DNA of 64,000 nt from an uncultured Pseudomonadota bacterium (GCA_963779495.1 CAVZYM010000005.1:528241-592240), one strand, 5' to 3'; shown: positions 3,014 to 35,307, counted from the stretch's first letter. A program made the numbers and translations. Notes: generated by a model not told the origin, from the letters alone.

Positions 3014-3086
3014 GGGGATGTAGCTCAGCTGGGAGAGCGCCTGAATCGCACTCAGGAGGCCGACGGTTCGATCCCGTTCATCTCCA
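3014..3086 (+). tRNA. tRNA-Ala (anticodon CGC)
   Basis: Cloverleaf folded by hand: acceptor GGGGATG/CATCTCC with G3:U70 Ala identity pair; D-arm GCTC-AGCTGGGA-GAGC; anticodon stem CCTGA/TCAGG with loop ATCGCAC (anticodon CGC); T-arm GACGG-TTCGATC-CCGTT; discriminator A. No encoded CCA. Confidence 0.85.
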
Positions 3087-3118
3087 CGAAAGTACTTAGG
3101 TTTTCTTCTGGAAAGTGC

Positions 3119-17355: not shown

Positions 17356-18756
17356 CTAGAGCGTGTAGAGGAAGGCGACGAGGTCGCGCTTCTCCGCCTC
17401 CGTGAGGCGGGTCTCCATCACCAGGTTGAAGAACTCGACGGTGTCGTCGAGCGTGAGGAGTCGCCCGTCGTGCAGGTAGGGGGGCGAGTCCTTGATGCCG
17501 CGGAGCGGGAAGGTCTTGATCGGCCCGTCGGCGGTCGCGGTCATGCCGTTGATGTTGACCGGCTTGTAGAAACGCTCGGCGCGCAGGTTGTGCATCAGGT
17601 TGTCGGTGTAATAAGGGGGCGCGTGGCAGACGCCGCACTTGGCCTTGCCGAAGAACAGCGCCTCTCCGCGCATCTCTGGCTCTGCAGCGCGCTTCGGGTG
17701 CAGGCGGCCGTCGACGGTCAGCTTGGGCGCGGGCGGAAAGTCGAGCAGCTCCTGCAGCTCCGCCATGAAGTGGACCTGGCTGCCGCGCTCGAGGATGTTG
17801 ACGCCCTTCTTGGTGGCGATCACCGGATCGCCGTCGAAGTAGGCGGCGCGCTGCTCGAATTCGGTGAAGTCCTCGACGCTCTTCAGCGCGCGCTGCGAGC
17901 CGAACAGGCGCTGGATGTTCACGCCGCGCAGGCTCGGGGTATCGATCCGGTGGCGGAACGCCTGGGGGCGGGTATCGCCCGCCAGGTGGGTGGCGCCGTT
18001 GGTGTGGCCGTTGGCGTGGCAATCGAAGCAGGTGACGCCGCGGTGGGGCAGCGTCGAGCGCCGGTCCTCGGTGACGTTGAACTGCTGCTGCGGAAACGGC
18101 GTGAGCAGCAGCCGGAACCCCTCCAGCTGCTTCGGGTTCAAGAGCCCGTCGAACAGCGCAAAGAAGTTCATCAGCGTCACCAGCTGGCCGCGCGACACGT
18201 CGCCGAGGTCGGGGCGCGTGGTCAGGAAGATCGGCGGCGGAAACTCGGGCAGGAATGGATCGGGGATGTCGAAGTCGAGATCGAAGCGGGTCAGGTCCCG
18301 CCCCTCCTGCTTCTTGATCTCCTTGATGTGGAATTCGGGGAACAGCATCCCCCCCGCGGGATGGTTGGGATGGGGGAGCGGGTAGAAACCGGCGGGGAAG
18401 AGGTTCTTGTCGCGGATCTCCTCCGGGGTCATCGCCGCGAGCGAATCCCAGGTCACCCCTTTGGGAAGGCGCGCGCGCACGCCGGCCTGAACCGCCTTGC
18501 CCCGGAACATCTTGACCGCCTTGGCGGGACGGTTGGCAAGGTCGTAACGCTCGGCCAGCAAGGCATGCTGCCGCTTCATGATCGCCGCCTTCTCGGCGGT
18601 CAGTCGTTTGTGGAGGGTGGCGAAGTCCTCCGTCGGGACGACCGGCATGTAGCTGGTGGGCGGTGGCTTCTTCTCGTCCGAACGGGCAACGCCGGCGAGC
18701 AGCACCGTCGCGACGGACAACGAAGCAGCGACAACCAGCGCGCGCGTGAAGGTCAT
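17356..18756 (-). CDS. Di-heme cytochrome c peroxidase (CCP/MauG family)
   Basis: Signal peptide and two CxxCH heme motifs (CFDCHANGH; CGVCHAPPYY). ~465 aa. Confidence 0.85.
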   Translation of the reverse strand: MTFTRALVVAASLSVATVLLAGVARSDEKKPPPTSYMPVVPTEDFATLHKRLTAEKAAIMKRQHALLAERYDLANRPAKAVKMFRGKAVQAGVRARLPKGVTWDSLAAMTPEEIRDKNLFPAGFYPLPHPNHPAGGMLFPEFHIKEIKKQEGRDLTRFDLDFDIPDPFLPEFPPPIFLTTRPDLGDVSRGQLVTLMNFFALFDGLLNPKQLEGFRLLLTPFPQQQFNVTEDRRSTLPHRGVTCFDCHANGHTNGATHLAGDTRPQAFRHRIDTPSLRGVNIQRLFGSQRALKSVEDFTEFEQRAAYFDGDPVIATKKGVNILERGSQVHFMAELQELLDFPPAPKLTVDGRLHPKRAAEPEMRGEALFFGKAKCGVCHAPPYYTDNLMHNLRAERFYKPVNINGMTATADGPIKTFPLRGIKDSPPYLHDGRLLTLDDTVEFFNLVMETRLTEAEKRDLVAFLYTL

Positions 18757-18930
18757 GGTCCGGCCTTAGATGAGGTCGGACGTCCGCCGGTCAAGACGGG
18801 GACTCCCCTGGCCGGCAGGGGAAGCCAGGGCGATGCAATAAGGGCCTTCACGGGGAGCCGATGCGGCCCTCGTTTAGCGGCGATTGCCCGCTGACAGCGG
18901 CTGAACTTCCCCGGAACCGGGGAGCTCCGA

Positions 18931-19005
18931 GCGTATGTTCACAATTTATTGCGCTCGTTCACGATAATAGGCAGATTGTTCATACATGACCACAGTTGTT
19001 CACGA
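18931..19005 (+). promoter_or_regulatory. Phased array of four TGTTCA(C/T) direct repeats (18937, 18957, 18978, 18998; ~20.5-bp spacing) spanning the ietA-like start codon
   Basis: Read from sequence in the AT-rich 225-bp region upstream of 18986. GTTCACGAT 9-mer occurs twice. Two-helical-turn spacing suggests a transcription-factor operator array. Confidence 0.5.
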
Positions 19006-20134
19006 TCAGCTGCCACATGTTCTTGAACTCCTGAAAATAGTCGAAGGAGCGGTGAACGCAGATCGGGAAAAGGTCACTTCTTACACGGAGTTACTTGTCT
19101 CCAAGCTCGCTGCCGAGGGTCACAAGAACGTCGCCGATCGTCTTCAACGAGCCCTGCAGAGCTCTAAGACGAAGATGCTTGAACTCAGCCGACCGGGAAC
19201 CCGAGTTCCGGTCGACCAAGAGTCGCGCCTGGCTCTGGCGGATGAAGAACTCGTCCGACCAGGGGACGCGGTTGTCTTTGTATCTCCGGACGTCACAGCG
19301 TCGATCAGCGAATTCATTCGGTTCGTGGTCGCGTCCGATCGCCTCATCAGCCACGGCGTCGGCGTGTCGCCATCGATGCTTCTCTATGGCCCACCGGGCT
19401 GTGGAAAGACCGAACTGGCAAAGTACGTTGCGTCGCAACTGGGGTTGCCCCTGCTTACGGCACGATCCGATTCGCTAATCTCGTCGTTCCTGGGCAGCAC
19501 TGCCAAGAACCTCCGAGTCCTCTTCGAGCACGCGATGGCTCGCCCATGCGTTCTATTCCTCGACGAGTTCGACGCTCTCGCGAAGGCGCGCGATGACAAG
19601 AACGAACTCGGGGAGTTGAAGCGCGTTGTCGTCAGCCTTCTGCAGAACATCGACGCACTTGCATCAAAGACCGTGCTGCTAGCTGCAACCAACCACGACC
19701 ATCTACTGGACCCTGCGATCTGGCGCAGGTTCGCTTTCCGCCTAGAGATCGGCCTTCCAGAGCTTCAAGCAAGACGCGCCATGTTTCAACGCTTCTGCGG
19801 TGATCTAGCTGCAGGAAGCGAGGAGGACCTCGACCTATTCGCAGGCATTTCTGCGACGCTGAGCGGAGCTGACATTAAACAGGTCGCGGAAGACAGCAAA
19901 CGGAGTGCGATCCTGTCAGACAGGAATCGCATCGACACCGCCGAGGTCGTACGCCGCATTCTGCGTTACCGATTGCCCGACCTCGAGAAGGAGTTGGTCC
20001 CGCTGGAAGTGAAGGTAGCGGCTGCAAGGCGCTTGGACCCTGCTCTTTTGACCTACCGGCGCCTGTCAGAGGTATTCGGCATTTCTCTGGGACGTCTCTC
20101 CAAGCTTCTGCGAGAAGAGGTGGCGAATGGCTGA
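18986..20134 (+). CDS. AAA+ ATPase (IetA-like defence ATPase)
   Basis: Walker A GPPGCGKTELAK, Walker B VLFLDEFDAL, sensor-1 LLAATNHD, Arg finger WRRF. Low GC (~50-55%). Stop overlaps the start of the downstream subtilase by 8 nt (ATGGCTGA). Confidence 0.85.
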   Translation: MTTVVHDQLPHVLELLKIVEGAVNADREKVTSYTELLVSKLAAEGHKNVADRLQRALQSSKTKMLELSRPGTRVPVDQESRLALADEELVRPGDAVVFVSPDVTASISEFIRFVVASDRLISHGVGVSPSMLLYGPPGCGKTELAKYVASQLGLPLLTARSDSLISSFLGSTAKNLRVLFEHAMARPCVLFLDEFDALAKARDDKNELGELKRVVVSLLQNIDALASKTVLLAATNHDHLLDPAIWRRFAFRLEIGLPELQARRAMFQRFCGDLAAGSEEDLDLFAGISATLSGADIKQVAEDSKRSAILSDRNRIDTAEVVRRILRYRLPDLEKELVPLEVKVAAARRLDPALLTYRRLSEVFGISLGRLSKLLREEVANG

Positions 20135-22394
20135 GACAGAGCGCCGATTGCCAATCAAAGTCGTTCTAAACAGAGACGGAGATTGGTTCAGCCCGGACGG
20201 TGGCGGCGGTGGTCGCAAGATGTTCGGCGAGGTAACGCCCGACGTTCGGAGGAGTCTCTCTGAGCAATTGGCCAGCACCGCGAGGATTCTTCACATCGAC
20301 GAGACGGCACTACCCGCAGTCGGCCGGGTTGTCCTAAAACGTGACGCCCTCGCAAAGTCTCATCGGCCTGCAAAACTGTTTCGCGACACCTGTCCGATCA
20401 TCGGCGTCGGCCACCTCGGCGAGTTGTTTATCAGCCTGCGCCCCGGTCGGATTGAAGAGCTCATCAAGAGGATAGACGCCGACACCACCAAGGATGGTCA
20501 GGCAGATATCTCAACGATCGAGCAGATCCTTCCGCATGATCCGAACATCGCTACGGCGCCCGAGACCGTCGAAGAGTTGGCCGCTCGCGTAGACCGCTCG
20601 AGTGCCGCTCTCAAGGTCAAGCTGTTTCGGCATAACGACCCCAGTCTCGACAAGAGGATCCAGAACGCCTTCCTCGCCGAGCTCAGAACGCTCGACTTGG
20701 CTCCGCCCGAACCTATCGAGTACGCGAAGACACTGCGCATCTATCGCATCAGAAAGCCAACCGGCGAGGCCGTGCGGAGACTCGCACGCTTTGTAGGCTC
20801 CCAGAGCGTTTCGACATTCCCCATCTATAGATCGGTTAGGACGTCCGCTACTCGCGTACGGGCAGCGGAGGTGTCCGACTTCCCGAGTCCCGACCCCAGG
20901 CGAGACTACCCCGTGGTGGGACTCATCGACAGCGGAGTGAACGCTGGGGACGCTCTTCTTGCTCCTTGGATCGTGGCTCACGATGTCAACGTTCATCCTT
21001 CCGAGCAGGACCTTGAACATGGCAGCTTCGTCGCTGGTCTGTTGGTACATGGTCGGTTGCTGAATCAGAACGATCCGACTTTTCCCGACGGCCCCTGCAA
21101 GATCGTAGACGTCGTTGCTGTTCCGAAAGGGGGCATCTCGGAGGACCAGCTACTAACGATCATCGAAGACGCCGTCCCGAAGTATCCAAAGGCACGGGTC
21201 TGGAATCTCTCTGTGAACAGCATCGGTGGGTTGTGTCTAAATGACGCCTTCTCAGACTTCGCGGTAGCGCTCGACGAGATCCAGGCGAAATACGGCGTGC
21301 GGTTCGTGGTATCGGCAGGCAACTACGTGACGCCACCTCTGCGGGGTTGGCCAGCCGAGGACCTAGGCGAGGCTGATCGGATTTGCGCGCCGGCCGATTC
21401 CGTCCATGCGATCACCGTCGGCTCGATAGCCCATATCCATCGCCCAAATTCCAGAGTGAAGGCTGGTGAACCCTCTCCTTTCTCCCGTCGTGGTCCGGGC
21501 CCGGTTTATCTTCCCAAACCCGACCTTTCTCACTATGGCGGTAACTGCGACGCGGCACTCGGCTGCGTGCAGACAGGCGTGCTCTCCCTCGATGCCAATG
21601 GGGACGTGGCGGAAAGCATCGGGACAAGTTTTGCGACACCGCTCGTCACGTCGCTTTATGCCCACGTCCACGCTGAACTCACGGGGAAAGAGCCCCCGTC
21701 ACCAAGTCTGGTGAAGGCCCTGCTGATTCATTCAGCCTTGCTGTCGAAAGGCGCCCTGTCAGCAGTGGACATGAAGTACCGCGGTTTTGGGGTTCCCGGG
21801 GGGGTGCTGGAAGTCCTGTCGTGCACCAAGTCTGTGGCCACGCTGATCTTCGAACCGGACCTAATTTCAGGACTCGAATTCGAGAAGCTAGGCTTCCCCA
21901 TTCCCACCAGCCTCAGAGACAAGAACGGGAAAGTTCGGGGAGAGTTCGCCATCACGCTCGTGTACGACCCTCCATGCGACGCCTTGGGTGGGGCGGAGTA
22001 CTGCCGCTCGAACGTCGAGGTCTCGCTTGGCAGCTACGATGTGGGGACAGACGGCAAGCGACACCACAAGCGCCAAGTCCCTCCAGAGCCGGAAGATGTG
22101 AACAAGTTGTTCGAGCACGAGCTCCTCGAGCACGGGTTCAAATGGTCTCCAGTGAAGGTCTACCGCCGCTCGATCAGGCGCGGAATCCGCGGCGATACGT
22201 GGAGGCTCCATGTTTCGCTCCAGCATCGAAGCGGCTTTCAGACGCAGATTCCTCAGCGAATGGCGCTCATCGTGACGCTCGCCGACCCCAACGGGACAGC
22301 GCCTGTGTACGACGAAATCGTTACCCAGATGCATGCCAGCGGTTGGCTGACCCAAGATCTACAGGTCAAGAACAGAGTCCGGCTAGGAGTCTAG
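20127..22394 (+). CDS. Subtilisin-like serine peptidase, S8 family (IetS-like) with ~280-aa N-terminal region of unknown function
   Basis: Catalytic triad motifs in canonical order: VVGLIDSGV (Asp), HGSFVAGLL (His), SAGNY (oxyanion Asn), GTSFATPLV (Ser). 755 aa. Translationally coupled to the ATPase. Confidence 0.85.
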   Translation: MAETERRLPIKVVLNRDGDWFSPDGGGGGRKMFGEVTPDVRRSLSEQLASTARILHIDETALPAVGRVVLKRDALAKSHRPAKLFRDTCPIIGVGHLGELFISLRPGRIEELIKRIDADTTKDGQADISTIEQILPHDPNIATAPETVEELAARVDRSSAALKVKLFRHNDPSLDKRIQNAFLAELRTLDLAPPEPIEYAKTLRIYRIRKPTGEAVRRLARFVGSQSVSTFPIYRSVRTSATRVRAAEVSDFPSPDPRRDYPVVGLIDSGVNAGDALLAPWIVAHDVNVHPSEQDLEHGSFVAGLLVHGRLLNQNDPTFPDGPCKIVDVVAVPKGGISEDQLLTIIEDAVPKYPKARVWNLSVNSIGGLCLNDAFSDFAVALDEIQAKYGVRFVVSAGNYVTPPLRGWPAEDLGEADRICAPADSVHAITVGSIAHIHRPNSRVKAGEPSPFSRRGPGPVYLPKPDLSHYGGNCDAALGCVQTGVLSLDANGDVAESIGTSFATPLVTSLYAHVHAELTGKEPPSPSLVKALLIHSALLSKGALSAVDMKYRGFGVPGGVLEVLSCTKSVATLIFEPDLISGLEFEKLGFPIPTSLRDKNGKVRGEFAITLVYDPPCDALGGAEYCRSNVEVSLGSYDVGTDGKRHHKRQVPPEPEDVNKLFEHELLEHGFKWSPVKVYRRSIRRGIRGDTWRLHVSLQHRSGFQTQIPQRMALIVTLADPNGTAPVYDEIVTQMHASGWLTQDLQVKNRVRLGV

Positions 22395-22540
22395 TCTGAC
22401 GGGCGACACCGACGAAGGAGCGTCAGTTCTCATGGATTGCCGACGTCCCACAGGCCACAGTGCCTCGGTCGAAGCGTTGAGGGTCGTCGGCTAAGACCCG
22501 AAGAAGCCCGTTCAATGGCTCGAACTGGCGGGGAGACGAT

Positions 22541-24091
22541 ATGACGACGGAGGCGACAGACATTCACCGGCTGAACTCTGAGCAGATCCGTCTGTACCAG
22601 ATAATGGAAACCGATCCGGTGCGAGCCTTGACGGAGGCGAAGGGGCTTCATGACGACGGCCCGGGCGGTATGTGGACGCAGCTGAGGGGATGTGTCCTCG
22701 CAGAAGCCGGAGGCGCATCGAATGACAAGAGGCCTATCGAAGAAGCAATCGCGATATTCCGGGCGGCCTTGGCGAGAAAGCCCGACGATCCCATGGTCGC
22801 GTACAACTTGGCGAATGCGCTCGGAACACTTGCCAGATTGGACAAGACGGACCTTCCCAAGCGTTACCTGCAGACCTCAGCGTTGAGGCTGGAGAGTCGG
22901 GCCCTCTATGGTTCAGCCGCGAAGGCTCTCCGGAAGAAGCACGCACGGACTGCTACGCAATGCCTAACGAACGTAGGAAGCGCGCTCGACTACGCATTTC
23001 GTTGGATCGAGGCGTTCGAAGCCTACACCGACGCGCTGGCAGTCTACCCAGAGAATGGCGTTGCGTCGGGCGCTGCTGCCCAGGTGCTTTTCAGAGTGTC
23101 GCAAACAGGCCGGCAGCGCGGCTCAGAACATCTGCGCGCTGCGGCGCTGCGCCTGGCCTGGCACTCGCAACAGAATGTCGACACGGTAAGGGCGTTCGCA
23201 GGCGAAGGCGCCGTTCAAGCATTCCTTCGCTTGCCGAGCCGAGCAACAACACCACCACGCCCAATCAAAGCAGGGCTTTCAACGTACCAGCGTTTCGTTT
23301 CGCACCATCGGCTCGCGCTCTCGCCCGTGGTCGAGGGGCTGAAGTCTTTGCGCCGATGGGATGACATCCAAGTGACCGGCATACATGCGCACGGTAACGA
23401 AGGTCCCCATATGCCGCCATTGTTCGCGATGTTCAACCTGTTGAAAGGGGATTACTTGCTTGCGCGGGAACTACTATTCGAGGGCGTCCAGGAGAAACAT
23501 CGGGATACGGGCTGGTACGCCGACACGCTCGACTATGCTCTTTATGGCAGGAAGACATCTTGCCTTGTTCTCGCGCAGCGTTCGGCACTTGACTTGCTCG
23601 ATCGAATCGCTGTTGCGCTGAACGACTACCTGGACGTTGGCGTTTCACCGAATGACGTCCACTTCGTGCGCTTCTGGTTCGAGCCAAAGGCATCCAATTG
23701 GCGTAAGCCGATCTATGACGAAATCGATGCAGGGAATCCCGCCCTCATCGCCCTAGCGGAGATCGCTTCCGACCTCGGAAGCGTCGCGGTTGGCGAAGCC
23801 AAAGCTATTCCCTTGCTTTACCGACACCGTCATCTACGGAATTCGGGAACTCACCGCTTCACAACGCTTCACGATGTCGAGATCGGCGCCCATCGCCCCT
23901 CGCCCGCAATCGAGCACATGCGGCTGGATGACTTTCAACAGGCGGCCATCGATACACTGAAACTCGCCAGAGCAGCACTCTTCTATCTGGTCGAGGCAGT
24001 CGACTATCGTGAACTCCGTCTGGGGCACAGCGCGGGGGTGATGGGATCGCTACCCGTCGTGGGTCATCACCGCATTCGGGGACGCCGATAG
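22541..24091 (+). CDS. TPR-like repeat protein with C-terminal domain carrying an R-x4-H (HEPN-like) motif; function unknown
   Basis: N-terminal ~230 aa helical TPR-like repeats (AIAIFRAALARKPDDPMVAYNLANALG...). C-terminal LLYRHRHLRNSGTHRF contains RNSGTH (Rx4H) ~75 aa from the C-terminus in a predicted helical region. Low GC. 147-bp gap after the subtilase. Confidence 0.55.
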   Translation: MTTEATDIHRLNSEQIRLYQIMETDPVRALTEAKGLHDDGPGGMWTQLRGCVLAEAGGASNDKRPIEEAIAIFRAALARKPDDPMVAYNLANALGTLARLDKTDLPKRYLQTSALRLESRALYGSAAKALRKKHARTATQCLTNVGSALDYAFRWIEAFEAYTDALAVYPENGVASGAAAQVLFRVSQTGRQRGSEHLRAAALRLAWHSQQNVDTVRAFAGEGAVQAFLRLPSRATTPPRPIKAGLSTYQRFVSHHRLALSPVVEGLKSLRRWDDIQVTGIHAHGNEGPHMPPLFAMFNLLKGDYLLARELLFEGVQEKHRDTGWYADTLDYALYGRKTSCLVLAQRSALDLLDRIAVALNDYLDVGVSPNDVHFVRFWFEPKASNWRKPIYDEIDAGNPALIALAEIASDLGSVAVGEAKAIPLLYRHRHLRNSGTHRFTTLHDVEIGAHRPSPAIEHMRLDDFQQAAIDTLKLARAALFYLVEAVDYRELRLGHSAGVMGSLPVVGHHRIRGRR

Positions 24092-24140
24092 ACCGATCGA
24101 TGGCGTCATACTGCGCGCTGATCTCGTCGACTTACATATT

Positions 24141-26561
24141 TTGGGCTGGGCAGCACAACGCGATGACCCCCAGAATGGAAGGCACACGATGACTAACGCT
24201 GACAGTCTCCATCTGCCGCTAAACGTCGCGCGTGCGGTCATTCTCGGCGACGTCCAATTTCTCCGATTCGAGCAGTTCGCCAACGATCTCGTTTCAAAGA
24301 TCGAGGGAGATCGGCCGGTACTTTCGACCTCTCTCACCTATGATCGCGGCAGGGACGGAAAGACCATCGGCCCCGGACCCCGTGTCTACATCTGCTCATC
24401 GCTGAACGACATACCCGACGACAAGGCACTAGCCGATATCGACAAGATCGCCGCCTCTAAGGCGCCGGTCCAGCGGATCTATTTCTGCAGCTCCCAGAAA
24501 TTGACAGAGCATGCGGGAGATAGAATCGCTGCCCTCCTGCGAGCCAAGCTTGGTGACGATGTCTCTGTCGAGTTTCTTGGGGCATACCACTTGGCGGACT
24601 TCGCGGTCCGTTTCCCTGAGGTTGCCCACAAGTCCTACTCGGCCGAAATTGCCGACATCGTTCAGGCTTTCAAGCCATCTCACCAAGTAGATGAAGCTTC
24701 GCGCCTTGCGTTGGAACTCGCTCTCTGTACGGTTGGTCACGAGGATTCAGCCGCAATTCGGACAAGCGCATACGTTGCGTCACTGCGGAGCGTCCTCCTC
24801 GATGGAGTCCCGCGCAACGTCGCCGAATGCGCCCGCGATCTGGCCGCGCGGCTCAAGCTTGGGCGCAGTCTGCCGGGCACCGCAGTCAAGCTGTACTTGG
24901 ATACACTGGAGCAACAGCAAGATGTCACGGTTGTCAGCGATCGCTATGGCCTGACGGAAGCTGGTCGAGCCGCCACCGCCGCAGCGACAGGAGCGGCAGC
25001 CGAGGCGCTCATGAGGGGGCGTCGTGAAGTACGAGCTCAGATTGAACTCGAGCTGGGCTTCACTCTTGAGGACGGCCAATTTGCGACGATGTGGCGAACC
25101 CTACAGGACAAGCTTGCCTTGCTCTTCTACTCGCGAGGACGCGAGATGGTCGAAGGGGTAGCTGCTCTGCTGGGACAGAACGCCTCTTCCAGTGGCGCCG
25201 CGGGTGGACCCACGACACCGACGGCTGCCGAAGGGATGCATGGGCCGTTCTTCGCCAGAGCACTCGGTGACGCCGTAGCTGCAACTTGCTCTAGCCAAGA
25301 ACTAGCCGAACAGGTGCAGGTTGCTCTGTCGGATATTTTCTCCGAAGGAACGGGCGCGGCATTCGAGTGGTTGGTCGAAGTGTGTGCCGGCTTCGTGACT
25401 ATCTGCTCGCTCGGTCTTGAGGCTTCTTCGGGTCAAAAGATCCGCGATGCCGTCTCTCGAATCGCGCTCATCTATGATACCGACGTCCTTCTCTCGCTGC
25501 TGGGCGAAGCCGAACCAGATCACGCCGCCGTCGTAGAGATGACCCGACGATGGCGAGAACTCGGCGGCCAACTTCTCCTCGCCGACCCGGTCTTGCGGGA
25601 GACGGCATACCACGCGTGGATTTCCGAGAGAGATTTCAGGGAGGTGGACTCATGGTTGCCCGGATCTGACTTGGATCGATTGCGCTTTATTAAAAACGTC
25701 TTCGTGCGGTCGTTCGCGACACTGATCTCTCGTCAGCGGGCGCGAAGGAACCAGTGGCACACCTATATCTCTCAGTTCCGTGGAAGTTCGGACCACGATG
25801 CTAGGCGCCTGCACGCGCATGTGTCTTCCGAAAGTAAGGCAGGCGCGCTCCCTCGCATTCTCGAACACGAGTCGGGGTGGGAGCGTGATGTTTGGGACGC
25901 GTGTGAAGAACGCGCAGACCGCGGCGCTGCTGGCGACCGAGACCGGAAGATTAAAACCGACAAGGCCAGACGCGATGCAGAGCTCTACGTTTCGATGGTC
26001 CGGTATTCGGAAACCCTCCGGGATACCGAACTTGAGGGTCACTGCTTTCTCGTATCCTCGGCGCACCGCCTTGCGGACCTCGAGGCAGAGTTCCATCCTG
26101 GTGAACGGGCGCGCGTCCTATCGATCGGCGCTGTACTTCACATGTTGGCGTTGGTCCCGGGTGTCTCCGTTGGGTTAACGGCCCTCGGAAGTCTTCTCTT
26201 TGATGGAAGCTTCCACAAAGGCATGTCCGATCTCGGCATGGTTCTTCGCCGCGTCTTGAGGGATTCCGATGGATTCAGCATGCCTTGGGCCAGCCGGACG
26301 ACCCTCGAACGGGACATGCGAGCGCGGCTGGTCGCTCGCGCTGCTGAAGGAGGAGGTACCCACGCGGAGAAGGCCAAAAGAGCCAAAGAGATGGAGCATC
26401 AGGTCGTTAGCGGCGAAAAACCTGAAGCGACCGCGATGCTCATAAGGGAAGCCCTCGACCAAGTCGGCGCTGATACACGGATGGAGCGACAGCTCGCGGA
26501 GGCACATCGGCGCATCGCCGAACTTGAGGCAGCGGCCGCCCGTAAAACCAGAGAGAGCTAG
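24141..26561 (+). CDS. Large (806 aa) uncharacterised protein with a central PIN-like nuclease fold signature
   Basis: Segment SRIALIYDTDVLLSLLGE...LLLADPVLRETAYHAW resembles the PIN strand-1 Asp and the following Glu. No P-loop. Coiled-coil and charged C-terminus. Low GC. 50-bp gap after the TPR gene. Confidence 0.5.
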   Translation: MGWAAQRDDPQNGRHTMTNADSLHLPLNVARAVILGDVQFLRFEQFANDLVSKIEGDRPVLSTSLTYDRGRDGKTIGPGPRVYICSSLNDIPDDKALADIDKIAASKAPVQRIYFCSSQKLTEHAGDRIAALLRAKLGDDVSVEFLGAYHLADFAVRFPEVAHKSYSAEIADIVQAFKPSHQVDEASRLALELALCTVGHEDSAAIRTSAYVASLRSVLLDGVPRNVAECARDLAARLKLGRSLPGTAVKLYLDTLEQQQDVTVVSDRYGLTEAGRAATAAATGAAAEALMRGRREVRAQIELELGFTLEDGQFATMWRTLQDKLALLFYSRGREMVEGVAALLGQNASSSGAAGGPTTPTAAEGMHGPFFARALGDAVAATCSSQELAEQVQVALSDIFSEGTGAAFEWLVEVCAGFVTICSLGLEASSGQKIRDAVSRIALIYDTDVLLSLLGEAEPDHAAVVEMTRRWRELGGQLLLADPVLRETAYHAWISERDFREVDSWLPGSDLDRLRFIKNVFVRSFATLISRQRARRNQWHTYISQFRGSSDHDARRLHAHVSSESKAGALPRILEHESGWERDVWDACEERADRGAAGDRDRKIKTDKARRDAELYVSMVRYSETLRDTELEGHCFLVSSAHRLADLEAEFHPGERARVLSIGAVLHMLALVPGVSVGLTALGSLLFDGSFHKGMSDLGMVLRRVLRDSDGFSMPWASRTTLERDMRARLVARAAEGGGTHAEKAKRAKEMEHQVVSGEKPEATAMLIREALDQVGADTRMERQLAEAHRRIAELEAAAARKTRES

Positions 26562-26714
26562 AGTCTGCGGACAAAGACTTTGGCCCCCGTCAAGTTCGAC
26601 GGTTACCGACGTCCTACGAAATCGCACTCAGGACCGACGGGGTCCATCCGTCGCCACAGTGCCTGCCTTTTCTTCTCCCGAGCCGGTTTGAAACGGGCGG
26701 CTAGACGATCGCGC

Positions 26715-29700
26715 TTACTCGACGCGCGTCGTCTCGTCGATGACGCTGATGAGCTCGTTCGCGGCGCTCCGGATGGGATCGCCCTTGGGGAGGTCCTGGG
26801 CGGCGCGCTTCGCGAACATGATGGCGCGATCGCGCTCCCCTTTGCGGTACGCGATGCGGGCCTGCCGGAGGAAGGCGTCCGGCAGGGTGATGGGGCCGAC
26901 GACGTGGTTGGCGACGATGAGCCGCAGGACCTTCAAGGCGAGGTCGACGTCCCCGGCGGCCTCGGCGCGTTCGACCAGCACGGCCATGATCTCCCCGTTC
27001 TTCTTGTCGGCGTCGACGGCCCGCGCGAGCGCCGCCAGCTCCCCCTTCTGATCGCCGGCCTGCGCGGCGAGGCGCGCCAGGCGCGCGTGGAGCAGCGCGA
27101 GCGCCGGGGAGGCCATGCCCTTGTGGGCGGCGACGAACGGCTTGAGCAGCTCGGCCGCCTCGGCGAGGGAGCCCATGAGGGCGTGGGCGTCCGACGTCAG
27201 CAACGCCGTTTCCTCGTCGCGCGGGCGAATGGCCACGGCCTCGGTGAGGGCCGCGAGGGCCATCGGGCCGTCGCCGAGCTCCAGCGAGAGCCCGCCCGCG
27301 CGGCGGAGCAGCTGGAAGCGCACGGTCTCGTCCTCCGAGCGGCTCGCGGTCTCGTACAGCAGGGCCGCCAGCTTGCGCTGTTCGCCCGCCCCTTCGTAGA
27401 GGTGCCCGAGCAGATCGATCAGCGCCTGCTGGCCGGGGTCGCCGGCGACGAGCTGCTCGATGGCCGCCATCGCGTCGGGGGTCCGATTCGCGCGCCCCGC
27501 CAGCTCGACCAGCCGGTTGGCCGCGGCGACCTGCGCCTCGCCGCTCGTGAGGCGCATCAGGTGGTAGGTCGCGTCGACGGCGCCCGCGACGTCGCCCTCC
27601 GCCTCCGCGAGGTCGGCGGCCAGCTGCATCGTGTCGGCGTCAGGTTCGCTGCTCTCGAGCACGTCTCCGACGAGCTCGCGCGCGGTCACGACGTCGCCCC
27701 GGCGGCGGGCCAGGTCGGCCAGCTCCAGCGTCACGGCGCGCAGCTCGCCAGGCGAGCCGGCCTTCGCGGCCGCCGCGCGCCACAGCTGAAGTGCGCCCGC
27801 CAGCGTCTCGGCGACGGCGTCGGGCGAGAGGTCGTGAACGCCCCGCAGCACGGCGACGGCGGCGCGGTGATCTCCGCGCGCGCTTTCCAGCTCCGCCAGC
27901 AGGAGCGACAGCGACAGCCGCCGCGCCGGATCCGCTGCGGCGGCGCCCGCCGGCCCCGCGAGGGCGGCGGTCACCTCGGCCACGGCGGCGCTGACGTCAC
28001 CCACGGTGACCAGCGCGCGCGCGAGGCGTTCGACGACCTCCGCGTTCTCGGGCGCGCGCGACCGGGCGAGCTGAAGCAGCGTCGTGGCGCCCGCCGGATC
28101 CGCGAGCTCCGTCTGTCGAAGCGTCGCCGCCTCGAGGAGCCAGGCGAGGGCATCCGCCGCGTCCGTCTCACGAACGGCGCGGTCCGCAAGCAGCTCGGCG
28201 AGCAACGACCAGGACTGCCTGGCCCGATAGAGGCGTTCGAGCTCCTGCGCGATCCCAGCGTCGGCGGGCGCCAGCGCGCGCCCCCGTTCGAGCACGCGCC
28301 GGACGGCCGGCGCGTCGCCGAGCTCGGTCCAGATGGCGGCGATCTCGCGGACCAATCCGGCCGCCTCCGGCCCCGTCTCCAGGGCGAGGAGCTCCTCCAT
28401 GCGCTGGGCGTGCTCGGGCGTCGCTTGCTTCCCCTGCCCTTGCAGCGCGAGGAGCTTCCTGAGCAGATCTCCCCGCCCGCGGGCGATGCCCAGCGCCCGC
28501 TCGTAAAGGGCAGCGGCGCGTTCGGGCTCGGCGCCTTCGAGCCGGGCGCCCAGCTGCAGCGCCGCCTCCGCCACCCCGTTCTGATCGCCGGCCTCGCAGG
28601 CCGCCTCGAACATCTGCTCGAGCAGATCGACGATGTCGCCCGACGCGCCGGTGCGCTCGTAATAGCCCGCCAGCAAGGCGAGGGCCTCGGGGTGCCGCCG
28701 CTCCTCGAGCAGCACGTCGCGCAGGATGTCGGCGGCCGCGGCGTCGCGGTCGTCGGCGGCCAGGAGAACGCGGGCGCGAGACAGACGGAGCTGATTGCGC
28801 TGCGCCACGTCGGGCAGCATCGGCAGCGTCTCTCCCACGACGCGCTCCAACCCGACGCGATCCTGCAGGGCGATGTAGTGCTCGAGCAACGGACGCCAGA
28901 TGGTCTCATCGCCCGGCGAGGCCGACCGCAGCCGTTCGAGGAGCGAGGCGCCCAGGCGGTGATTGCTCGCCCGCGCGGCCCGGCCCGCGAGATCGCGCGC
29001 CAGCGCCGTGAAACGCTCGGGCTCGACGACCTCCGTCTCGGCCGCGCGTTCGAGCGCGCGGGCCGCGCCCTCGAGAATCGCCCGCCGCCCGCCGGCGGGC
29101 AATCAGCTCCAGCGAGGCCCAGGCGGCGTCGCGCCGCCCCGTGGGCTCCTTCACCGCGACCTCCGCCAGCCTCAGCAGCAGAGGTTCGACACGCTCGGAC
29201 TCGCCGAGGGCGACGGCCAGGTCCACCGCCTCGCGGGCCTCGGCCACCGTCACCGAAGGCGTCGCGGCGCGACGTTCGAGATAGTCGAGCAACAGGCGCT
29301 CGTCTCCCGACTTGCGCGCAATCCGTTCGTAGAGAGGGAGGACCTTGACCTGCTCTGTCTGCGGCAGGCCGGCGGCCTCCACCAGCGCCGAGGCCCGATC
29401 GAGGTCGGGGCTCTTCTCCAGGGCGGCGGACAGCTTCGCCACGCCGGCGTCGCGCGTGGTCTCGCGCGGAAGCTCGATGGCCGCGGCCCGGTAGAGCGCC
29501 TCCGCCGCGTCGTCGGCCGTCGCCGCCTCGGCCGCCAGCTCCTCCAGCCGCGCGACGATGCGATCGCACTCGGCGTCGTCGCCGCGCTTGCCGGCCAGCC
29601 GGGCCAGGCCCGAGAGGACGACGAACGACCGGGGCTCGACCTCCTCGGCGCGGCGATGGAGCTCCAGCGCGCGCGCGTCATCCTCGAAGTCGCGCTCGGC

Positions 29701-32700
29701 GATCTCGGCGACCCGCAGCAACAGCGCCGCCGCGACGCCCGTTTCGGCCTTGCGGCGCCGCCGTTCGACCAGCGCCAGCAGCCGATCGGCGAGCGCCTCG
29801 GTCTTCCCCGCCTCGCGTCCCAGCGTGAGCAGAGGCTCGTGGAACGGCACGCGCTCGGGCGCGCCTTCGACGGCCAGGAGCTGCGCCTCGAAGGCTTCGG
29901 CCAGACGACCCTGGCCGCGCAAGCTCTCCGCCAGCTCGGCGTGGACGTCGGCCTGCGCAAGCGTCCCGGCGGTCCGGGCGAGGCGCTTTTCGAAAAGGCG
30001 CCCGAGGACGTCGTGGTCACCGCGCGCGAGCAGCCCTTGCTGGAGACGGCGCGCCTCCTCCGGGTCCTCGATGGCCGCCGCCAGGGCAGACTCGAGCAGC
30101 TCGTCGGCCTCGCCGCCGTCGCCGCGCTTGCGTGCCAGGCCAAACAGCCGCAGCAGAATCTCCGTCGCCGCCAAGGCTGTCGGTCCGCCTCCGTCGACCG
30201 CATCGCCCTCCGCCCGCCGCACGAGCAGCGCGCGGTAGGCGCGCTCGGCCTGCGCGACCGCGCCGGCTTCCTCGGCCACCTCGGCGAGCTGACGCAAGAT
30301 CCCCAGGTTCGAACCGTCCATCGACGACGCCAGCTCCAGCTGTTCGAGCGCGAGAGGAAGGTCCCCCTCCGCGCGCGCCAGCTCGCCGAGGCGTTGGTGG
30401 AGCGCGGCGCGCTTGCGGCTCTTGCGCCAGCCGGCCTGCTCGACGAGGGTGAGCAGCTCTTTCCGGGCGTCCACGCGGCGGTCGGACTGGGCCAAGCCGT
30501 CGGCCAACGCCAGGCGCAGCCCCTCGTCGCGCGGCAACAGGCGCACGGTGCGTTCCAGGACGGGGACCGCACGCGCCAGCATCCCCAGGCGGGTGTAGGT
30601 CTCGGCCGCCTCGCGGGCGCGGGTCACAATCAGCGCCTCGTCGTCGGTGTGCTCGCATCCGTCGGCCAGCACGCGGGCCAGCGGCTCCCAGGCCGCCGCC
30701 TCGCGGTAGAGACCGGCCAGGCGCTCGCGCAGGGCGTCGGCCCGCGGCTCGTCCGCCAGCGCGCGCTCCAGGCAAGCGACGGCGCGGTGGCGCTGGCCGG
30801 CCGCGAGATGAGCGGTCGCCAGCGTGCTGGCAATCTCCGCGCGCGCAGACCCTTCGGTCATGGCGAGGCGTCGTTCGAGCCAGCGCGCCGCCGCGGTCGC
30901 CTCGCCGGCGTCCAGGGCCAGGCGCCCCAGCGCGTCGAACGCCTCGGTGGTGGCATCGAGCTCGGCGACCTGCTCCCAGGCCGCCGCGGCCCGGGGCCGA
31001 TCGCCCAGCGTCTTCTCGGCCAGGCGCGCCAGCTCCGACCACAGCGCGGCCGAGGGGGACGGCTGGCCCTCCTCGGCCAGAATCCGCGCCTGCTGCTCGT
31101 AGACACCGGCCAGCTCCGCCGGCTTGCCCTTCCCCAGCAGGACCTCCGCCAGCCGCTGCACGGTCGCGGCGTGCCCTGGCCGTTCGGCGAGGTTCGCGCG
31201 CAGGACGTCGGGGGCGCTGCTCCGCTGCTCGAGCAGCCCGCCCACCCGAACGATCTCGAGCCGCAGCGCCAGCCGGCGTTCACTGCCCGTCGTCGCTTCC
31301 AGCTCGGCCAGCCGCAGGGACGCGGCATCGGCGAAGCGGCGCTCGCTCTCGTAGAGGCGCGCCAAGGCCTCGCGCGCGACGTCGTCGGCCGGCGCCTCCT
31401 CGTGCAGCGAGCGCCAAATCCGGACGGCGCCCGCCACGTCGGCGAGAGGGCCTTCGGTCAGCTCCGCCGCGCGGCGCAGCCAGCCCCGGCGGGTCTCGGT
31501 GGCGGCGGGCAGGCGCGCGCCCTCGAGCAGCAACGCGGTCGCGCGGCGCAGGCGGTCGGGCCCGCCCGCGGCGACGTGCAGACGAACGCTCTCGTCGATC
31601 GCGTGCGTCGCGGCCTCGACGGCCGCGCCCGCGGCGGGTCCGCCCAGGTGCGCCAGGCGCAGGGCGCGCTCGGCGAGACGCCCCAGGAAATCCAGGGCCA
31701 ACCGCTCGTCGGACCTGGCCATCGCCACGCCCGCCGCCTCCCTCAAGAACTCGAGGTCGTTCGGTTGCTCGACCGAGAGCCGCTCGAGCGTTTCGAGCAG
31801 CCCGTCGGCGCCACGCGCGCGCTGAAGCTCGGCACGCTGCCTCAGCGTCGGCACGTGGCCCGGCTCGGCGGAGAGCGCCCGGGCCAGCGCCGCGTCGGCC
31901 GCCGCTGCGTCCTGGCAGTCCATCAGAGTGGCGGCGACGCGCGCGTGAAGCTCGCGGCGCGCGCCCGGTTCCAGGTCGCCCGCCTGATCGACGGCGCGGG
32001 CCAGGGCGGCCGCGGCCGCCGGCAGCTTCCCGGCCTCGCGCGACAGCGACTCGAAGAGGGGAAGCAGCACGGTCTCGCGCGTCGACGGTGACACCGCGGC
32101 GTCGACGATCAGGCCGGCGGCCGCCGTCAGATCGCCCATACGGACGGCGACCCCCAGCAGGCGGCGTCGCGGCCCGAGGCGTTCCGGCGTGATCGCGAGC
32201 GCGGCTTCGTAGCAGGCGCGCGCGCCCACCATGTCGGCCACGTGCTCCTCGAGCAACGTGCCGCGGCGCTCATGAAGGTGGGCGAGCGGCAGCGGCGGTA
32301 GACCGCCGACGTCGATGGCCGCCGCCAGCGCGTCGGCCGCGCGGGCATGGCCGCCCGTCGCCTCGGCCAACCGCAGGACCTCCCGCTCGAGAGCGAGGCT
32401 CCGGCCCGCGAGGGGCAGCGCCTGGCACAACCACTCGAAGGCACGCGCGCGATCGGACGCCCGCTCCTCCGCCAGCGCGGCCGACTCTTCCAGCAGCCGC
32501 GCGCGCGCGTCCGCCGACTGCAGCGCCGCCAGCCGGTGCGGGACCAGATCCAGCAGCAGCTGCCAGGCGTCCGTCCGCTCCGCCGCCCGGTAGAGCGGCT
32601 CTGACGCCAACGGGGCCAGGCTCGCATCGGCCAGCAGGGCCGTCAGGCCTGCCCGCGCGCCCTCGTGGGCGGGCTCGACCTCCAGCGCGCGCCCGTACCA

Positions 32701-34613
32701 CACGATCGCCCCGCGGGCGTCGTCCAGCCGTTCGCGCAGCGTGTCGCCGAGGCGCGCGAGACGGTCGGCGTGCACGCGCCGGTCCACACCCGCGCGCTGC
32801 CCGAGAAGCTCGCCCAGCTCCGCGAAGCGCCCGCTCTCCGCGTACAGACCGACGAGCGCGTCCACGCTCTCCGCGTCCTCGCCGAACCGGGTCGCGATCT
32901 CGCGCCAGGCCTCCACGGCGCACGGCAGGTCCCGCGTCCGGGTGTGGGCCAGGGTCGCGATCTCGACGAGGTCCGCACGCACCTGGTGCGCGCCGGGCGA
33001 GGAGCCGACCCGCCTGCGCAGCAAATCAATCAGCGCCGGCCAGCGTTCGCCCTCGATCAGCAGCGTGCGAATCGCCGCCAGCGCCTCGGCGTCGGCCGGA
33101 TCGACGGCGAGACGGCCCTGCCACGAAGCGATCGCGCGGTCGAGGTCGCCGCGCTCGCGCGCCAGCTTCGCCACCAGCGCCCAGACGATCCGCTTGTCCG
33201 CGGTCTTGGGCTCGAGGGCGGCCAACCGTTCGAGGACGTCCAGCCGCTTCTCCGTCTCGTCCAGCTCGTGGTGGAGCTCCTCCAGCCGGCGCAGCGCCTC
33301 GAGCTTGATCTCCAGGGAAGCGGCAGCTTCGGCCGCCGCCGCGGCGAACAGGGCAGCCGCCTCGGCCTTGTGCCCAAGCTGGCGGTCCTCGACCCGCGCG
33401 GCGCGCATGATCAGCTCGACACGTCGTTCGTCCGCCGCGCACGCGCGCGCCGCGATCGCCAGCCCCCGGGCCAGGCCGGCCCGATCTCCGCTCAGCTCGG
33501 CGAGCTGGCGCAGGCGGTCCTCAATCTCGCGGTCCTCGGGCGCCAGGGCCACCAGGGCGACGTACTGCTCCAGCGCGCCGGCAAGATCGCCCAGGGAGCG
33601 AAGCCGCTCACCGCACTCTCGCCGCAGCGCCTGGTGACGCTCCCCCGTCGAGAAACCGATCGCCACCGCCAGCAGCTCGGGCATGTGCGTCGCGCGCCCG
33701 GCCGCGTCCAGACGGCCGCGAAGCGCGTCCAGCGCGGTCAGGCGCGTCTCGGCCGACCCCCGCTGGTCGACGAAGACCTGTTCCAGCCGCTCGGCGAGGG
33801 CCGCGTCCACCGCGGGCCCGCCCAGCAAGGGGCGGAGCACCGCCAGGGCGTCATCTGGTTGGCCCAGCTCCGTGTGCAGCGTCCCGGCCAGACGCAAGCG
33901 TTGCTCGCGGGCCTCTTCGCCGGTGAGCCCCTCGAGGCGAAGGCGCCAGACGGCGCAGAGCTCGCTCCAGCGCCGATCGCGCTCCAGCAGCCGCTCCAGC
34001 GAGGACGCGACCTGGGCGTCCGTGGGGCGCATGCGGAACAACGTGTCGAGGTACCCGATGGCACGCCCGGGATCGCGCGTGAAGTCCTTCGCGATCCGGG
34101 CCGCCTCCCCCAGCAGCTCGGCGCGCCGTTCGTCCCCCCGCCCGGCCGCGAGGCGGGCATCGTAGCTGTCGAGGACGTCACCCCAGCGCTCGGCCATCGT
34201 CAGCGCGACGACCAGCGGCCGAAAGGCCCAGTCGGAATCGGGCGCCGCCGAGAGCACCGTCCGCAGGACGTCGATCGACTCGGGCGCGTTCTCGCCGAAG
34301 CAGTCCGCCGCGAACCGGGCGGCGCGGCGCGCCAGGATCTCGTGCAGGGGCCTGGGCAGATCTCTCCCCAGCTGGGCCCGATAAAACTCCAGCAGGCCGC
34401 GCGCCTGCGCCTCGTTGGCCGCGACCGTCTCCTCCAGGCGGCTCCAGGGCGCCTCGTTGCCGGGCTGCCGGATCGCGTCGTTCAGCGCCTCGTCGAACGC
34501 CTCGTCGACCACCGTCGCTTGGGCCGCGGCCGGGGCCTGAACCCGCGCCTCGACCTGACCTGACCCCGACCCGCGCAACTCGATCCGACCCGTGGCACGC
34601 TTTGCAGCCATCA
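26715..34613 (-). CDS. Giant (~2,630 aa) TPR/alpha-solenoid repeat protein; single gene split by an apparent frameshift near 29100
   Basis: ORFs 28906..35259 and 26715..29102 overlap in adjacent frames within a GC run (cgccggcgggcggcgggcg). Both are Ala/Leu/Arg/Glu-rich helical repeats with recurring GDxxxA...LxRA TPR-like periodicity. True start is ATGATG at 34613 (GGAG SD), because upstream codons are antisense to a real plus-strand lipoprotein gene. Confidence 0.7.
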
Positions 34614-34705
34614 TTTGCTCCTTGGGGAGCCACGGGAATCGGCCGATCCGGCTCAGTCGTTTAGCCCTATCTGTAGATAGGGTCGGTTCCGCTACACTCG
34701 CGCAC

Positions 34706-35251: not shown

Positions 35252-35307
35252 CGCGACATCCGCGTCAGGCGGCGTTCGGTGACGGCGCGTGCGGGCGCCG
35301 TCGCCGA

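Follow-up and report, generated by a model that had tools for sequence, protein, structure and literature searches.

A divergent IetAS-like gene pair with a candidate operator array on a low-GC islet of an uncultured Pseudomonadota bacterium

The stretch of DNA analysed here (64,000 nucleotides from an uncultured Pseudomonadota bacterium, hereafter the window) contains two adjacent plus-strand genes, of which the first encodes an AAA+ ATPase and the second a subtilisin-like protease. This is the gene order expected of IetAS in the sense of PADLOC and DefenseFinder. The features discussed below are:

17356-18756, minus strand: upstream neighbour gene, of host composition and without a Pfam domain
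18937-19003, plus strand: operator-like array of four direct repeats GTTCA(C/T), over the putative ietA promoter and start codon
18986-20134, plus strand: ietA, encoding a 382-aa long-form IetA, a classical-clade AAA+ ATPase and antitoxin partner (role known from relatives)
19388-19411, plus strand: IetA Walker A, GPPGCGKT (aa 135-142), invariant
19481-19495, plus strand: IetA pore loop 1, SSFLG (aa 166-170); S166, S167, L169 and G170 invariant, position 168 F or Y
19553-19573, plus strand: IetA Walker B, LFLDEFD (aa 190-196); L190-E194 (LFLDE) invariant
19685-19732, plus strand: IetA sensor-1, ATNH (N236), followed by the arginine fingers R247/R248 (WRRF) of the second region of homology, invariant
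20003-20128, plus strand: IetA C-terminal three-helix tail (aa 340-381), motif [FY]T[YV]RRLxxxFxxSxGxVSxLL, predicted helix-turn-helix (HTH) DNA-binding domain
20127-20134, plus strand: 8-nt overlap ATGGCTGA of the ietA stop and ietS start, suggestive of translational coupling
20127-22394, plus strand: ietS, encoding a 755-aa IetS, a subtilisin-like (S8) serine protease and toxin/effector partner (role known from relatives)
20928-21629, plus strand: IetS catalytic residues D268 (20928-20930), H298 (21018-21020), oxyanion-hole N360 (21204-21206) and S501 (21627-21629)

The ORF coordinates and the sharing of stop and start codons given in the first-pass annotation were borne out. The junction reads gcgaATGGCTGAgac, the ietS ATG (at 20127) and the ietA TGA (20132-20134) both fall within the overlap, and a Shine-Dalgarno-like GAGG lies 8-11 nt 5' of the ietS start. 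At homologous loci the two genes overlap by up to 4 nt or lie up to approximately 7 nt apart.

Assignment of the pair to IetAS, originally proposed from architecture and motifs, is supported by the PADLOC profiles, which match both proteins over their full length: IetA, PDLC02196, E-value 3e-132, 439.6 bits, residues 11-378 on profile positions 3-371 of 374; IetS, PDLC02197, E-value 6e-255, 846 bits, residues 5-752 on positions 3-748 of 749. The corresponding Pfam matches are AAA (1.3e-31) and Peptidase_S8 (3.3e-25). In NCBIfam, the sole specific full-length matches are IteA_antiphage (NF042959) and IteS_antiphage (NF042956; NCBI spelling), and these full-length alignments fall short of the equivalog cutoffs (IetA 436.1 vs 510 bits, IetS 734.4 vs 900). 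On these scores the pair would be left out of the narrow IteA/IteS equivalog set, and the PGAP names would be "ATP-binding protein" and "S8 family peptidase". Homologues comprise hundreds of collinear IetS proteins of 740-760 aa and thousands of IetA proteins. A scan of genome contigs returned one relative only (locus L003), and the others were drawn from viral contigs and exact-protein look-ups. IetS shares 39% identity with a protein of a Dongshaea plasmid that PGAP names IteS, and identity to the E. coli prophage variants is 35-43%. A DNA search for the PGAP-named iteS of E. coli found other variants (L097-L099) but not the named gene.

IetAS is reportedly an anti-phage system (Gao et al. 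2020), and the IetAS pair of the Agrobacterium Ti plasmid pTiC58 is said to have been described by Yamamoto et al. (2009). With anti-phage IetAS the window pair shares gene order and architecture, i.e. an IetA of ~370-385 aa extended by a C-terminal tail, and an IetS of ~750 aa in which accessory domains flank the S8 core on both sides. It also resembles pTiC58 IetAS/SgiAT in that an AAA+ ATPase antitoxin is followed by a subtilisin-like protease toxin. Alignment to validated IetAS proteins had been proposed as a check on the assignment; for the pTiC58 pair, whose genes we located from the plasmid record, it revealed homology, but of a distant kind. The ATPase core of pTiC58 IetA aligns over 309 aa (33% identity, E-value 3e-41), yet that protein is the 328-aa short form with neither the HTH-like tail nor an upstream repeat array. 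For pTiC58 IetS (836 aa) the S8 core alone aligns (24% identity) and the accessory domains differ; it reaches 43 bits on PDLC02197, compared to 846 for IetS of the window. Judged by these alignments, the window pair appears to lie outside the founding pTiC58/SgiAT clade, as a related member of the superfamily. The comparisons support placing it within the anti-phage clade, on a divergent branch and not next to any system that has been tested. Because of the sub-cutoff scores and the low identity to both pTiC58 (33% and 24%) and E. coli (35-43%) relatives, neither activity nor trigger specificity can be transferred with confidence. Another relative, ietHAS (Liu-DS4), combines IetAS with a SNF2-family helicase and needs its protease activity for defence (PMC13069673). 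The locus has the IetA and IetS components in common with it, but the helicase domain is absent from the neighbouring ORFs.

IetA consists of an N-terminal three-helix bundle (aa 12-59), an AAA+ core (aa ~100-335) and a C-terminal three-helix tail (aa 340-381). The Walker A, Walker B, sensor-1 and arginine-finger motifs claimed for the ATPase proved to be a complete set, invariant across the 38 homologues over which all IetA motifs were judged. The AF2 model (pLDDT 86.8) has FtsH, Rpt, p97 and AFG3L2 as its top Foldseek matches, and a sequence search of the PDB found the D2 domain of p97 at 8e-56. The aromatic-hydrophobic-Gly pore-loop motif is a mark of substrate-threading AAA unfoldases. From the model, IetA is predicted to be a hexameric pore-loop protein unfoldase of the FtsH/p97/Rpt type.

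The C-terminal tail of IetA (~45 aa), which the first-pass annotation had missed together with the C-terminal beta-sandwich of IetS (~180 aa), is modelled as helices 340-350, 357-364 and 368-381. Pfam matches among 26 family members are sub-threshold and weak, but consistent: Sigma70_r4 in 14, HTH_Tnp_4 in 13 and HTH_23 in 12, with a best E-value of 5e-5 for HTH_23. A profile of IetA tails also matches an AsnC HTH in the PDB. From the sub-threshold Pfam matches and the AF2 model, the tail of long-form IetA is predicted to be helix-turn-helix-like. Short-form IetA proteins, including that of pTiC58, lack it.

IetS comprises an N-terminal alpha/beta region (aa 1 to ~255), the S8 core (aa ~261-565) and a C-terminal beta-sandwich (aa ~570-745). 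The D-H-N-S constellation recognized in the first-pass annotation is indeed present, and alignments A1 and A2 show it to be invariant across 34-35 homologues, so that in both proteins all catalytic and Walker residues are conserved. The extra N-terminal domain noted there also exists, although approximately 255-260 aa, and not ~280, precede the S8 domain. It has no match in Pfam, and includes the conserved stretch ALAKSHRP (74-81); another, GFKWSPVKVY (670-679), lies in the beta-sandwich. A phmmer search of IetS against the PDB gave zero matches, but the AF2 model (pLDDT 89.5, pTM 0.91) retrieved with Foldseek ProN-Tk-SP (3afg), KP-43 (1wmd), pro-subtilisin E (3whi), EpiP and furin/Kex2 with its P-domain as top matches, with up to 613 aligned columns. 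IetS shares with these pro-subtilases the order of an N-terminal alpha/beta module, S8 core and C-terminal beta-sandwich. Sequence identity to them is just 10-20%, however, and the N-terminal region of ~255 aa is far bigger than an I9 propeptide of ~70-80 aa. On the modelled fold, IetS may follow the plan of a pro-subtilase, in which the N-terminal region would resemble a prodomain and the beta-sandwich behind the S8 core a P-domain. By inspection, no membrane-spanning or signal segment is predicted in the model of either IetA or IetS. Lacking a signal peptide, IetS is therefore predicted to be cytoplasmic.

The four repeats in front of ietA occupy positions 18937-18942, 18957-18962, 18978-18983 and 18998-19003, with a spacing of 20, 21 and 20 nt, and the last of them constitutes the Val-His codons 5-6 of ietA. 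The forward strand of the window contains only 23 GTTCAY sites in 64 kb, including the four of the array, and none of 2000 dinucleotide shuffles reached four copies. The same array was found at six homologous loci (L003, L093, L006, L008, L012 and L015), where the GTTCA cores are the sole invariant columns of alignment A5, and it is kept in relatives at 48-93% identity. Arrays of at least three copies occur at 18 of 28 long-form ietA loci and at 0 of 8 short-form loci (Fisher p = 0.003), compared to a background of 6/1387 random windows and 2/99 other (control) promoters. In this comparison long and short forms were classed by protein length, in place of an HTH profile of the closest clade, which was too narrow for divergent tails and gave p = 0.08. 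The repeat word differs by clade (GTTCA, CTTCA, CGTTC, ATAAC, AAACG), as expected if it co-evolved with a DNA-binding domain. About one third of long-form loci lack an array of at least three copies, among them L097 and L098 from E. coli prophages; such an array was found in none of the three E. coli variants L097-L099. The short-form branch (pTiC58/P4-satellite) has neither tail nor array. A scan of positions 18600-26800 yielded no passing plus-strand sigma-70 promoter, and terminator-like matches in the same region were no commoner than in shuffles. The promoter reading TTCACA-19 nt-GATAAT for ietA is non-canonical.

The array probably allows IetA to switch off its own operon, in a manner like that of type II antitoxins, with the C-terminal HTH tail of the long form binding the four GTTCA(C/T) repeats, which are two helical turns apart. 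The locus resembles type II toxin-antitoxin operons in its antitoxin-first order, overlapping toxin gene, predicted antitoxin HTH and candidate operator repeats over the promoter and start codon. They differ in that their antitoxins are small and labile whereas IetA is a large ATP-driven AAA+ machine, and in that their operators are palindromic, in contrast to the three or four direct repeats with a 20-21-nt period predicted for IetA. We give roughly even weight to a more specific possibility, namely that long-form IetA is a DNA-binding AAA+ unfoldase whose oligomer docks its HTH tails on the 3-4 repeats along one face of the DNA, so that transcription of the operon reports free IetA. It is an equally open bet, as part of the same reading, that engagement of IetA by a phage trigger or by IetS lifts repression, whether to renew the supply of antitoxin or to commit the cell to releasing the protease. 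We met no report of a DNA-binding or autoregulating IetA in the searchable literature. Alternatively, the repeats could be bound by a host factor rather than by IetA, and conservation of the fourth repeat could be due in part to protein-level selection on Val-His, as this repeat is coding.

The pair lies in an islet of ~8 kb whose GC content is 0.593, whereas the flanks reach 0.696 and 0.744; GC3 is 0.64-0.69 against 0.85-0.95. By this composition, the islet is foreign and was apparently acquired by horizontal transfer into a high-GC genome, probably that of a Myxococcota-like (delta-proteobacterium-like) host for which no phages are known. Around it we found neither an integrase gene nor convincing repeats, direct or inverted, at its flanks, and there is no tRNA gene beside it, the only one in the window being tRNA-Ala at 3014-3087. 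Besides ietA and ietS the islet carries a TPR-HEPN gene and a gene for a 791-aa protein, which appear to be unrelated cargo. The latter protein belongs to a widespread ~780-aa family without annotation and is a candidate single-gene defence factor. At all six homologous loci whose gene order was read (L001, L003, L006, L008, L010 and L012), the AAA gene lies directly 5' of the S8 gene while the neighbours differ each time, and often include restriction-modification (R-M), AbiEii or RadC genes. IetS is likewise downstream at most of ~30 loci on viral contigs. The constant order of the two genes amid variable neighbours at the six loci therefore argues for a self-contained two-gene module.

In characterized relatives IetS is a toxic protease and IetA the ATPase that neutralises it (PMC13069673; PMC5006074). 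Homologues from E. coli and from B. cereus were shown to protect against phages, and IetAS was found to act by abortive infection, which can be triggered by the product of the SPbeta gene yosG (bioRxiv 10.1101/2022.08.27.505566), but its mechanism has been described as unknown (PMC13069673, NAR 2026). We propose that IetA, at the expense of ATP, would keep IetS harmless, whether by unfolding it, by sequestering it or by holding its prodomain. Once a phage infects, one of its products would draw IetA away or inhibit it, and the freed IetS would cut essential proteins of the cell or the phage, so that the infection is stopped and the cell is lost. The reverse logic may also apply, with IetS activated by IetA.

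It could be argued that ietAS mainly serves addiction (post-segregational killing) and in this way stabilises the mobile islet that carries it, with phage defence secondary or absent. The family was first found as a plasmid-stability toxin-antitoxin system in pTiC58, and SgiAT stabilises Salmonella genomic island 1 (SGI1) (PMC13069673; PMC5006074); in addition, the pair rides an acquired low-GC islet, and the predicted antitoxin autoregulation is typical of addiction modules. We nevertheless consider this rather unlikely, though not remote: by PADLOC and NCBIfam the proteins of the window belong to the anti-phage clade and not to the pTi clade, as the contrasting IetS scores on PDLC02197 illustrate, relatives are found grouped with R-M and Abi genes and also at prophage defence hotspots, and an islet devoid of integrase, tRNA and flanking repeats presents no obvious excising element to be stabilised. 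The same pair could fill both roles.

That all four islet genes form a single cooperative system, in which the HEPN RNase and the 791-aa protein would serve IetAS as additional effectors or sensors, seems improbable to us. They are co-oriented within a compositionally uniform islet and recur together on contigs L002 and L093, but these are close relatives (86-100% identity), so the co-occurrence is not independent, and at L093 the last two genes are in reverse order. The four-gene system was rejected on the grounds that both extra genes are absent at L003, whose ietAS pair is 80% identical, and at all more distant pairs. Moreover, the 791-aa protein has distant homologues that occur on their own, and the extra genes are set off by gaps of 146 and ~95 nt, in contrast to the 8-nt overlap of ietA and ietS. 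Least credible, to the point of being hardly worth entertaining, is a housekeeping two-component ATP-dependent protease or an accessory of type VII secretion (T7SS; EccA plus mycosin) or lanthipeptide processing (LanP-like), even though IetA is a classical pore-loop AAA unfoldase closest to FtsH, Rpt and p97, and IetS resembles EpiP and other processing subtilases in structure. The first-pass annotation had named a better match to a proteasome-accessory or secretion-related ATPase/subtilase pair as evidence against IetAS; these models score far lower. For IetA the T7SS EccA model (TIGR03922) gives 36.5 bits (cutoff 466.65), proteasome ATPases ~110 (cutoff 500) and FtsH 108 (cutoff 600), and ESX, proteasome and lanthipeptide genes are absent nearby, on which grounds the T7SS, proteasome-accessory and lanthipeptide assignments were each rejected. 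A housekeeping role is also ill suited to the foreign islet composition, the patchy distribution and the presence in prophages and satellites, and the two models, by inspection, offer no membrane-spanning or signal segment.

We therefore hold, with good confidence, that the locus is a complete IetAS module of two genes, to all appearances intact, which belongs to the anti-phage clade and was horizontally acquired, with the mechanism and autorepression proposed above. It is a real but ordinary copy of a known pair: IetAS is already catalogued among defence systems, and standard tools would flag the copy in the window. The case illustrates that the strict equivalog cutoffs of NCBI miss divergent yet complete IetAS members. 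The combination of repeat array and HTH tail provides a concrete, cheap hypothesis for the control of IetAS and offers a way of dividing IetAS into two forms, one long and autoregulated, the other short, and the reading of IetA as an FtsH/p97-type unfoldase and of IetS as a pro-subtilase-like protease would narrow the plausible modes by which the toxin is restrained.

The pair consists of two open reading frames lying exactly where the first-pass annotation had placed them:

18986-20134, + strand: ietA, open reading frame of 382 aa
20127-22394, + strand: ietS, open reading frame of 755 aa

The claimed overlap of stop and start is real: at the junction (gcgaATGGCTGAgac) the ATG of ietS and the TGA of ietA have 8 nt in common, and a GAGG element lies 8–11 nt 5' of the ietS ATG. 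Pfam searches identified an AAA domain in IetA (aa 131–256, E 1.3e-31) and a Peptidase_S8 domain in IetS (aa 261–540, E 3.3e-25). Both motif sets that had been called complete are indeed so, and each residue is invariant: Walker A (GPPGCGKT), Walker B (LFLDE), sensor-1 (N236) and the arginine fingers (R247/R248) in an alignment of IetA with 37 homologs, and D268, H298, N360 and S501 of the subtilase in alignments of IetS with 33–34 homologs. The N-terminal extension of the protease is also present, but it spans about 255–260 aa before the S8 core rather than the ~280 aa proposed. The C-terminal beta-sandwich of IetS and the C-terminal helical tail of IetA had been missed.

The assignment of the pair to the IetAS system was borne out by end-to-end matches of both proteins to the PADLOC profiles (IetA, PDLC02196, E 3e-132; IetS, PDLC02197, E 6e-255). 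The sole specific full-length matches in NCBIfam are IteA_antiphage (436 bits) and IteS_antiphage (734 bits), scores that stay below the equivalog cutoffs of 510 and 900 bits, respectively. The competing ATPase families, namely proteasome-activating nucleotidase, FtsH and the T7SS protein EccA, all score far below their own NCBIfam cutoffs and were rejected as its identity. The ietHAS variant was likewise ruled out, as there is no helicase at the window locus. The founding pair maps to 97873-98859 and 98863-101373 of pTiC58 (NC_003065). Its IetA is 33% identical to the window protein over the ATPase and its IetS 24% identical, in the S8 core only; against the IetS profile (PDLC02197) the pTiC58 protease scores 43 bits and the window protein 846. 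Given these scores and identities, we place the window pair in the anti-phage clade of the catalogs and not in the Ti-plasmid clade. The IteS named by PGAP on a Dongshaea plasmid is 39% identical to the window IetS, and IetAS variants from E. coli prophages are 35–43% identical to the window pair. IetS homologs number in the hundreds and are collinear (740–760 aa), and those of IetA number in the thousands; phages encode members of the family as well (phrog_3757 and phrog_3964), and viral contigs gave 161 confirmed matches. Judged by sequence, the window pair is a divergent member of a known defense and toxin-antitoxin family, and ordinary as a finding.

We compared the gene neighborhoods of relatives on a plasmid (L001), in a MAG whose proteins are 80% identical to those of the window (L003), and at four metagenomic or genomic loci with ~50% identity (L006, L008, L010 and L012). 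In all six the AAA gene lies directly 5' of the S8 gene, with a spacing from a 4-nt overlap up to a gap of ~7 nt, while the neighbors vary and often include MmeI-type restriction-modification, AbiEii, RadC or SNF2-methylase genes. The unit conserved at these loci is the two genes. At least three distinct variants are present in E. coli chromosomes; one lies within a Rac-like prophage, another beside the portal gene of a P2-like prophage, and the third in a P4-like satellite, where IetA is of the short form (328 aa):

L097, 4614-8076: IetAS variant, E. coli chromosome
L098, 1119-4525: IetAS variant, E. coli chromosome
L099, 3539-6900: IetAS variant, E. coli chromosome

These three positions are recognized defense hotspots. 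PGAP labels all three variants only as "AAA family ATPase / S8 family peptidase"; with such generic names, IetAS is under-reported by genome annotation.

In the model of IetA (pLDDT 86.8), a classical AAA+ core is preceded by a three-helix bundle at the N terminus and followed by a three-helix unit at the C terminus. According to sequence and fold searches, the core groups with p97 D2, FtsH, the proteasomal Rpt subunits and AFG3L2. Pore-loop-1, SS[F/Y]LG, is kept throughout (S166, S167, L169 and G170 are invariant, and position 168 is F or Y), which points to a substrate-threading unfoldase. The model of IetS is compact (pLDDT 89.5, pTM 0.91). A phmmer search found no relative of IetS in the PDB by sequence; its best fold matches are subtilase structures that retain propeptides and C-terminal beta-domains (ProN-Tk-SP, KP-43, pro-subtilisin E, EpiP and furin/Kex2). 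Outside the S8 core, IetS has two strongly conserved motifs, ALAKSHRP (aa 74–81) and GFKWSPVKVY (aa 670–679), which likely mark surfaces for regulation or partner binding.

The 5' region and the start of ietA carry four operator-like repeats, spaced by 20, 21 and 20 nt:

18937: start of GTTCA(C/T) repeat 1
18957: start of GTTCA(C/T) repeat 2
18978: start of GTTCA(C/T) repeat 3
18998: start of GTTCA(C/T) repeat 4

They account for four of only 23 forward-strand GTTCA(C/T) sites in the 64 kb, and for four of the five in the low-GC islet that contains the pair. Dinucleotide shuffles of the region never yielded four periodic copies (0/2000), and three copies in only 8 cases. The same array lies 5' of ietA at L093, L003, L006, L008, L012 and L015, relatives whose proteins are 48–93% identical to those of the window, and the GTTCA cores are the only invariant columns in the alignment of these upstream regions. 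When exact 5-mers of any sequence were searched de novo in chains with 19–23-nt spacing, we detected three or more copies at 18 of 28 loci with long-form ietA (360 aa or more), four copies at 7 of them, and three or more at none of 8 short-form loci (340 aa or less, pTiC58 included; long vs short, Fisher p = 0.003). In the same loci, such chains were found in 6 of 1387 random windows and in 2 of 99 intergenic regions upstream of other genes. The two positive control regions (of 99; loci L013-L041 and others) contain 4 and 5 copies at 19–23 nt, and may be iterons, or operators that belong to other genes of mobile elements. The repeat word varies by clade (GTTCA, CTTCA, CGTTC, ATAAC, AAACG). About a third of the long-form loci lack such an array; this group includes the prophage variants of E. 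coli, where only two TTTGTnTCAC-like copies occur, ~40 nt apart.

Repeat 4 (18998-19003) coincides with codons 5–6 of ietA, Val-His. Across IetA homologs the N-terminal extension is variable, and no other residues in it are conserved (columns ~15–17 of alignment A3); in the window, L003 and L093 the two are encoded by GTTCA(C/T). The repeat probably explains the conserved "VH" dipeptide, and a DNA-level constraint seems to shape the protein sequence at this point.

Long-form IetA differs from the short form by a C-terminal tail with the motif [FY]T[YV]RRLxxxFxxSxGxVSxLL. Matches of single tails to HTH families are sub-threshold but consistent: Sigma70_r4 in 14 of 26, HTH_Tnp_4 in 13 of 26 and HTH_23 in 12 of 26 (best E among the last, 5e-5). 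A profile of the tail also matches an AsnC HTH in the PDB. The tail would, we infer, bind this array and keep the operon repressed. In the literature searched, we found no paper that connects IetAS to any HTH, operator or structure.

The pair is part of an islet of four co-oriented genes (~18757-26714, ~8 kb) with a GC content of 59% (left and right flanks, 70% and 74%) and a third-position GC of 0.64–0.69, against 0.85–0.95 in the surrounding genes. The flanking genes encode host-type proteins (PEGA, CBS, giant TPR). Searches of the islet turned up neither an integrase nor terminal repeats, and no tRNA was seen next to it. Directly to its right lie two very large minus-strand ORFs, 28906-35259 (2117 aa) and 26715-29102 (795 aa, predicted start), of host composition (GC3 about 0.9), with weak TPR matches only and a coordinate overlap of ~200 nt. 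The other two islet genes are:

22541-24091, + strand: TPR + LA2681-like HEPN gene (516 aa; N-terminal TPR, C-terminal HEPN PF18733, E 7e-44)
24186-26561, + strand: gene for a 791-aa protein, in the same low-GC islet

The TPR-HEPN protein has the Rx4H active-site motif (RNSGTH, aa 433–438) and is not recognized by PADLOC; its gene is probably a stand-alone defense or toxin gene of the RNase type. The 791-aa protein has no match in Pfam, PADLOC, NCBIfam or PHROGs. An exhaustive phmmer search retrieved a family of 387 representative clusters, 204 of them at E<=1e-30, nearly all collinear and 760–790 aa long. Its distant homologs stand alone in unrelated contexts, and it is a candidate single-gene defense or mobile-element cargo. 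All four islet genes recur in L093 (1-9297) with 86–93% protein identity and the last two swapped, which points to cassette-like shuffling of defense genes; both extra genes are absent from the L003 pair and from all distant pairs. On account of the swap, these absences and the stand-alone homologs of the 791-aa protein, we interpret the cargo of the islet as three independent modules.

E. coli IetAS alone gives only modest protection, and it can synergize with Zorya II. In relatives, toxicity of the protease is neutralized by the ATPase; in one study, constructs with mutated ietA were unobtainable (PMC13069673; PMC5006074). Their defense acts by abortive infection, and expression of yosG of SPbeta is enough to sicken cells carrying Bacillus IetAS (bioRxiv 10.1101/2022.08.27.505566). 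The molecular mechanism has been explicitly termed unknown (PMC13069673). In the account that we prefer, extrapolated from these relatives and from the modeled fold, an IetA hexamer would use ATP and its pore loops to hold a zymogen-like IetS inactive, a phage product would block or divert IetA, and the freed IetS would degrade essential proteins, aborting the infection. To judge from the conservation statistics, IetA would also repress its own operon by contact between the HTH and the array. The pairing of the HTH-like tail with the conserved operator-like array is a modest new, testable detail on IetAS.
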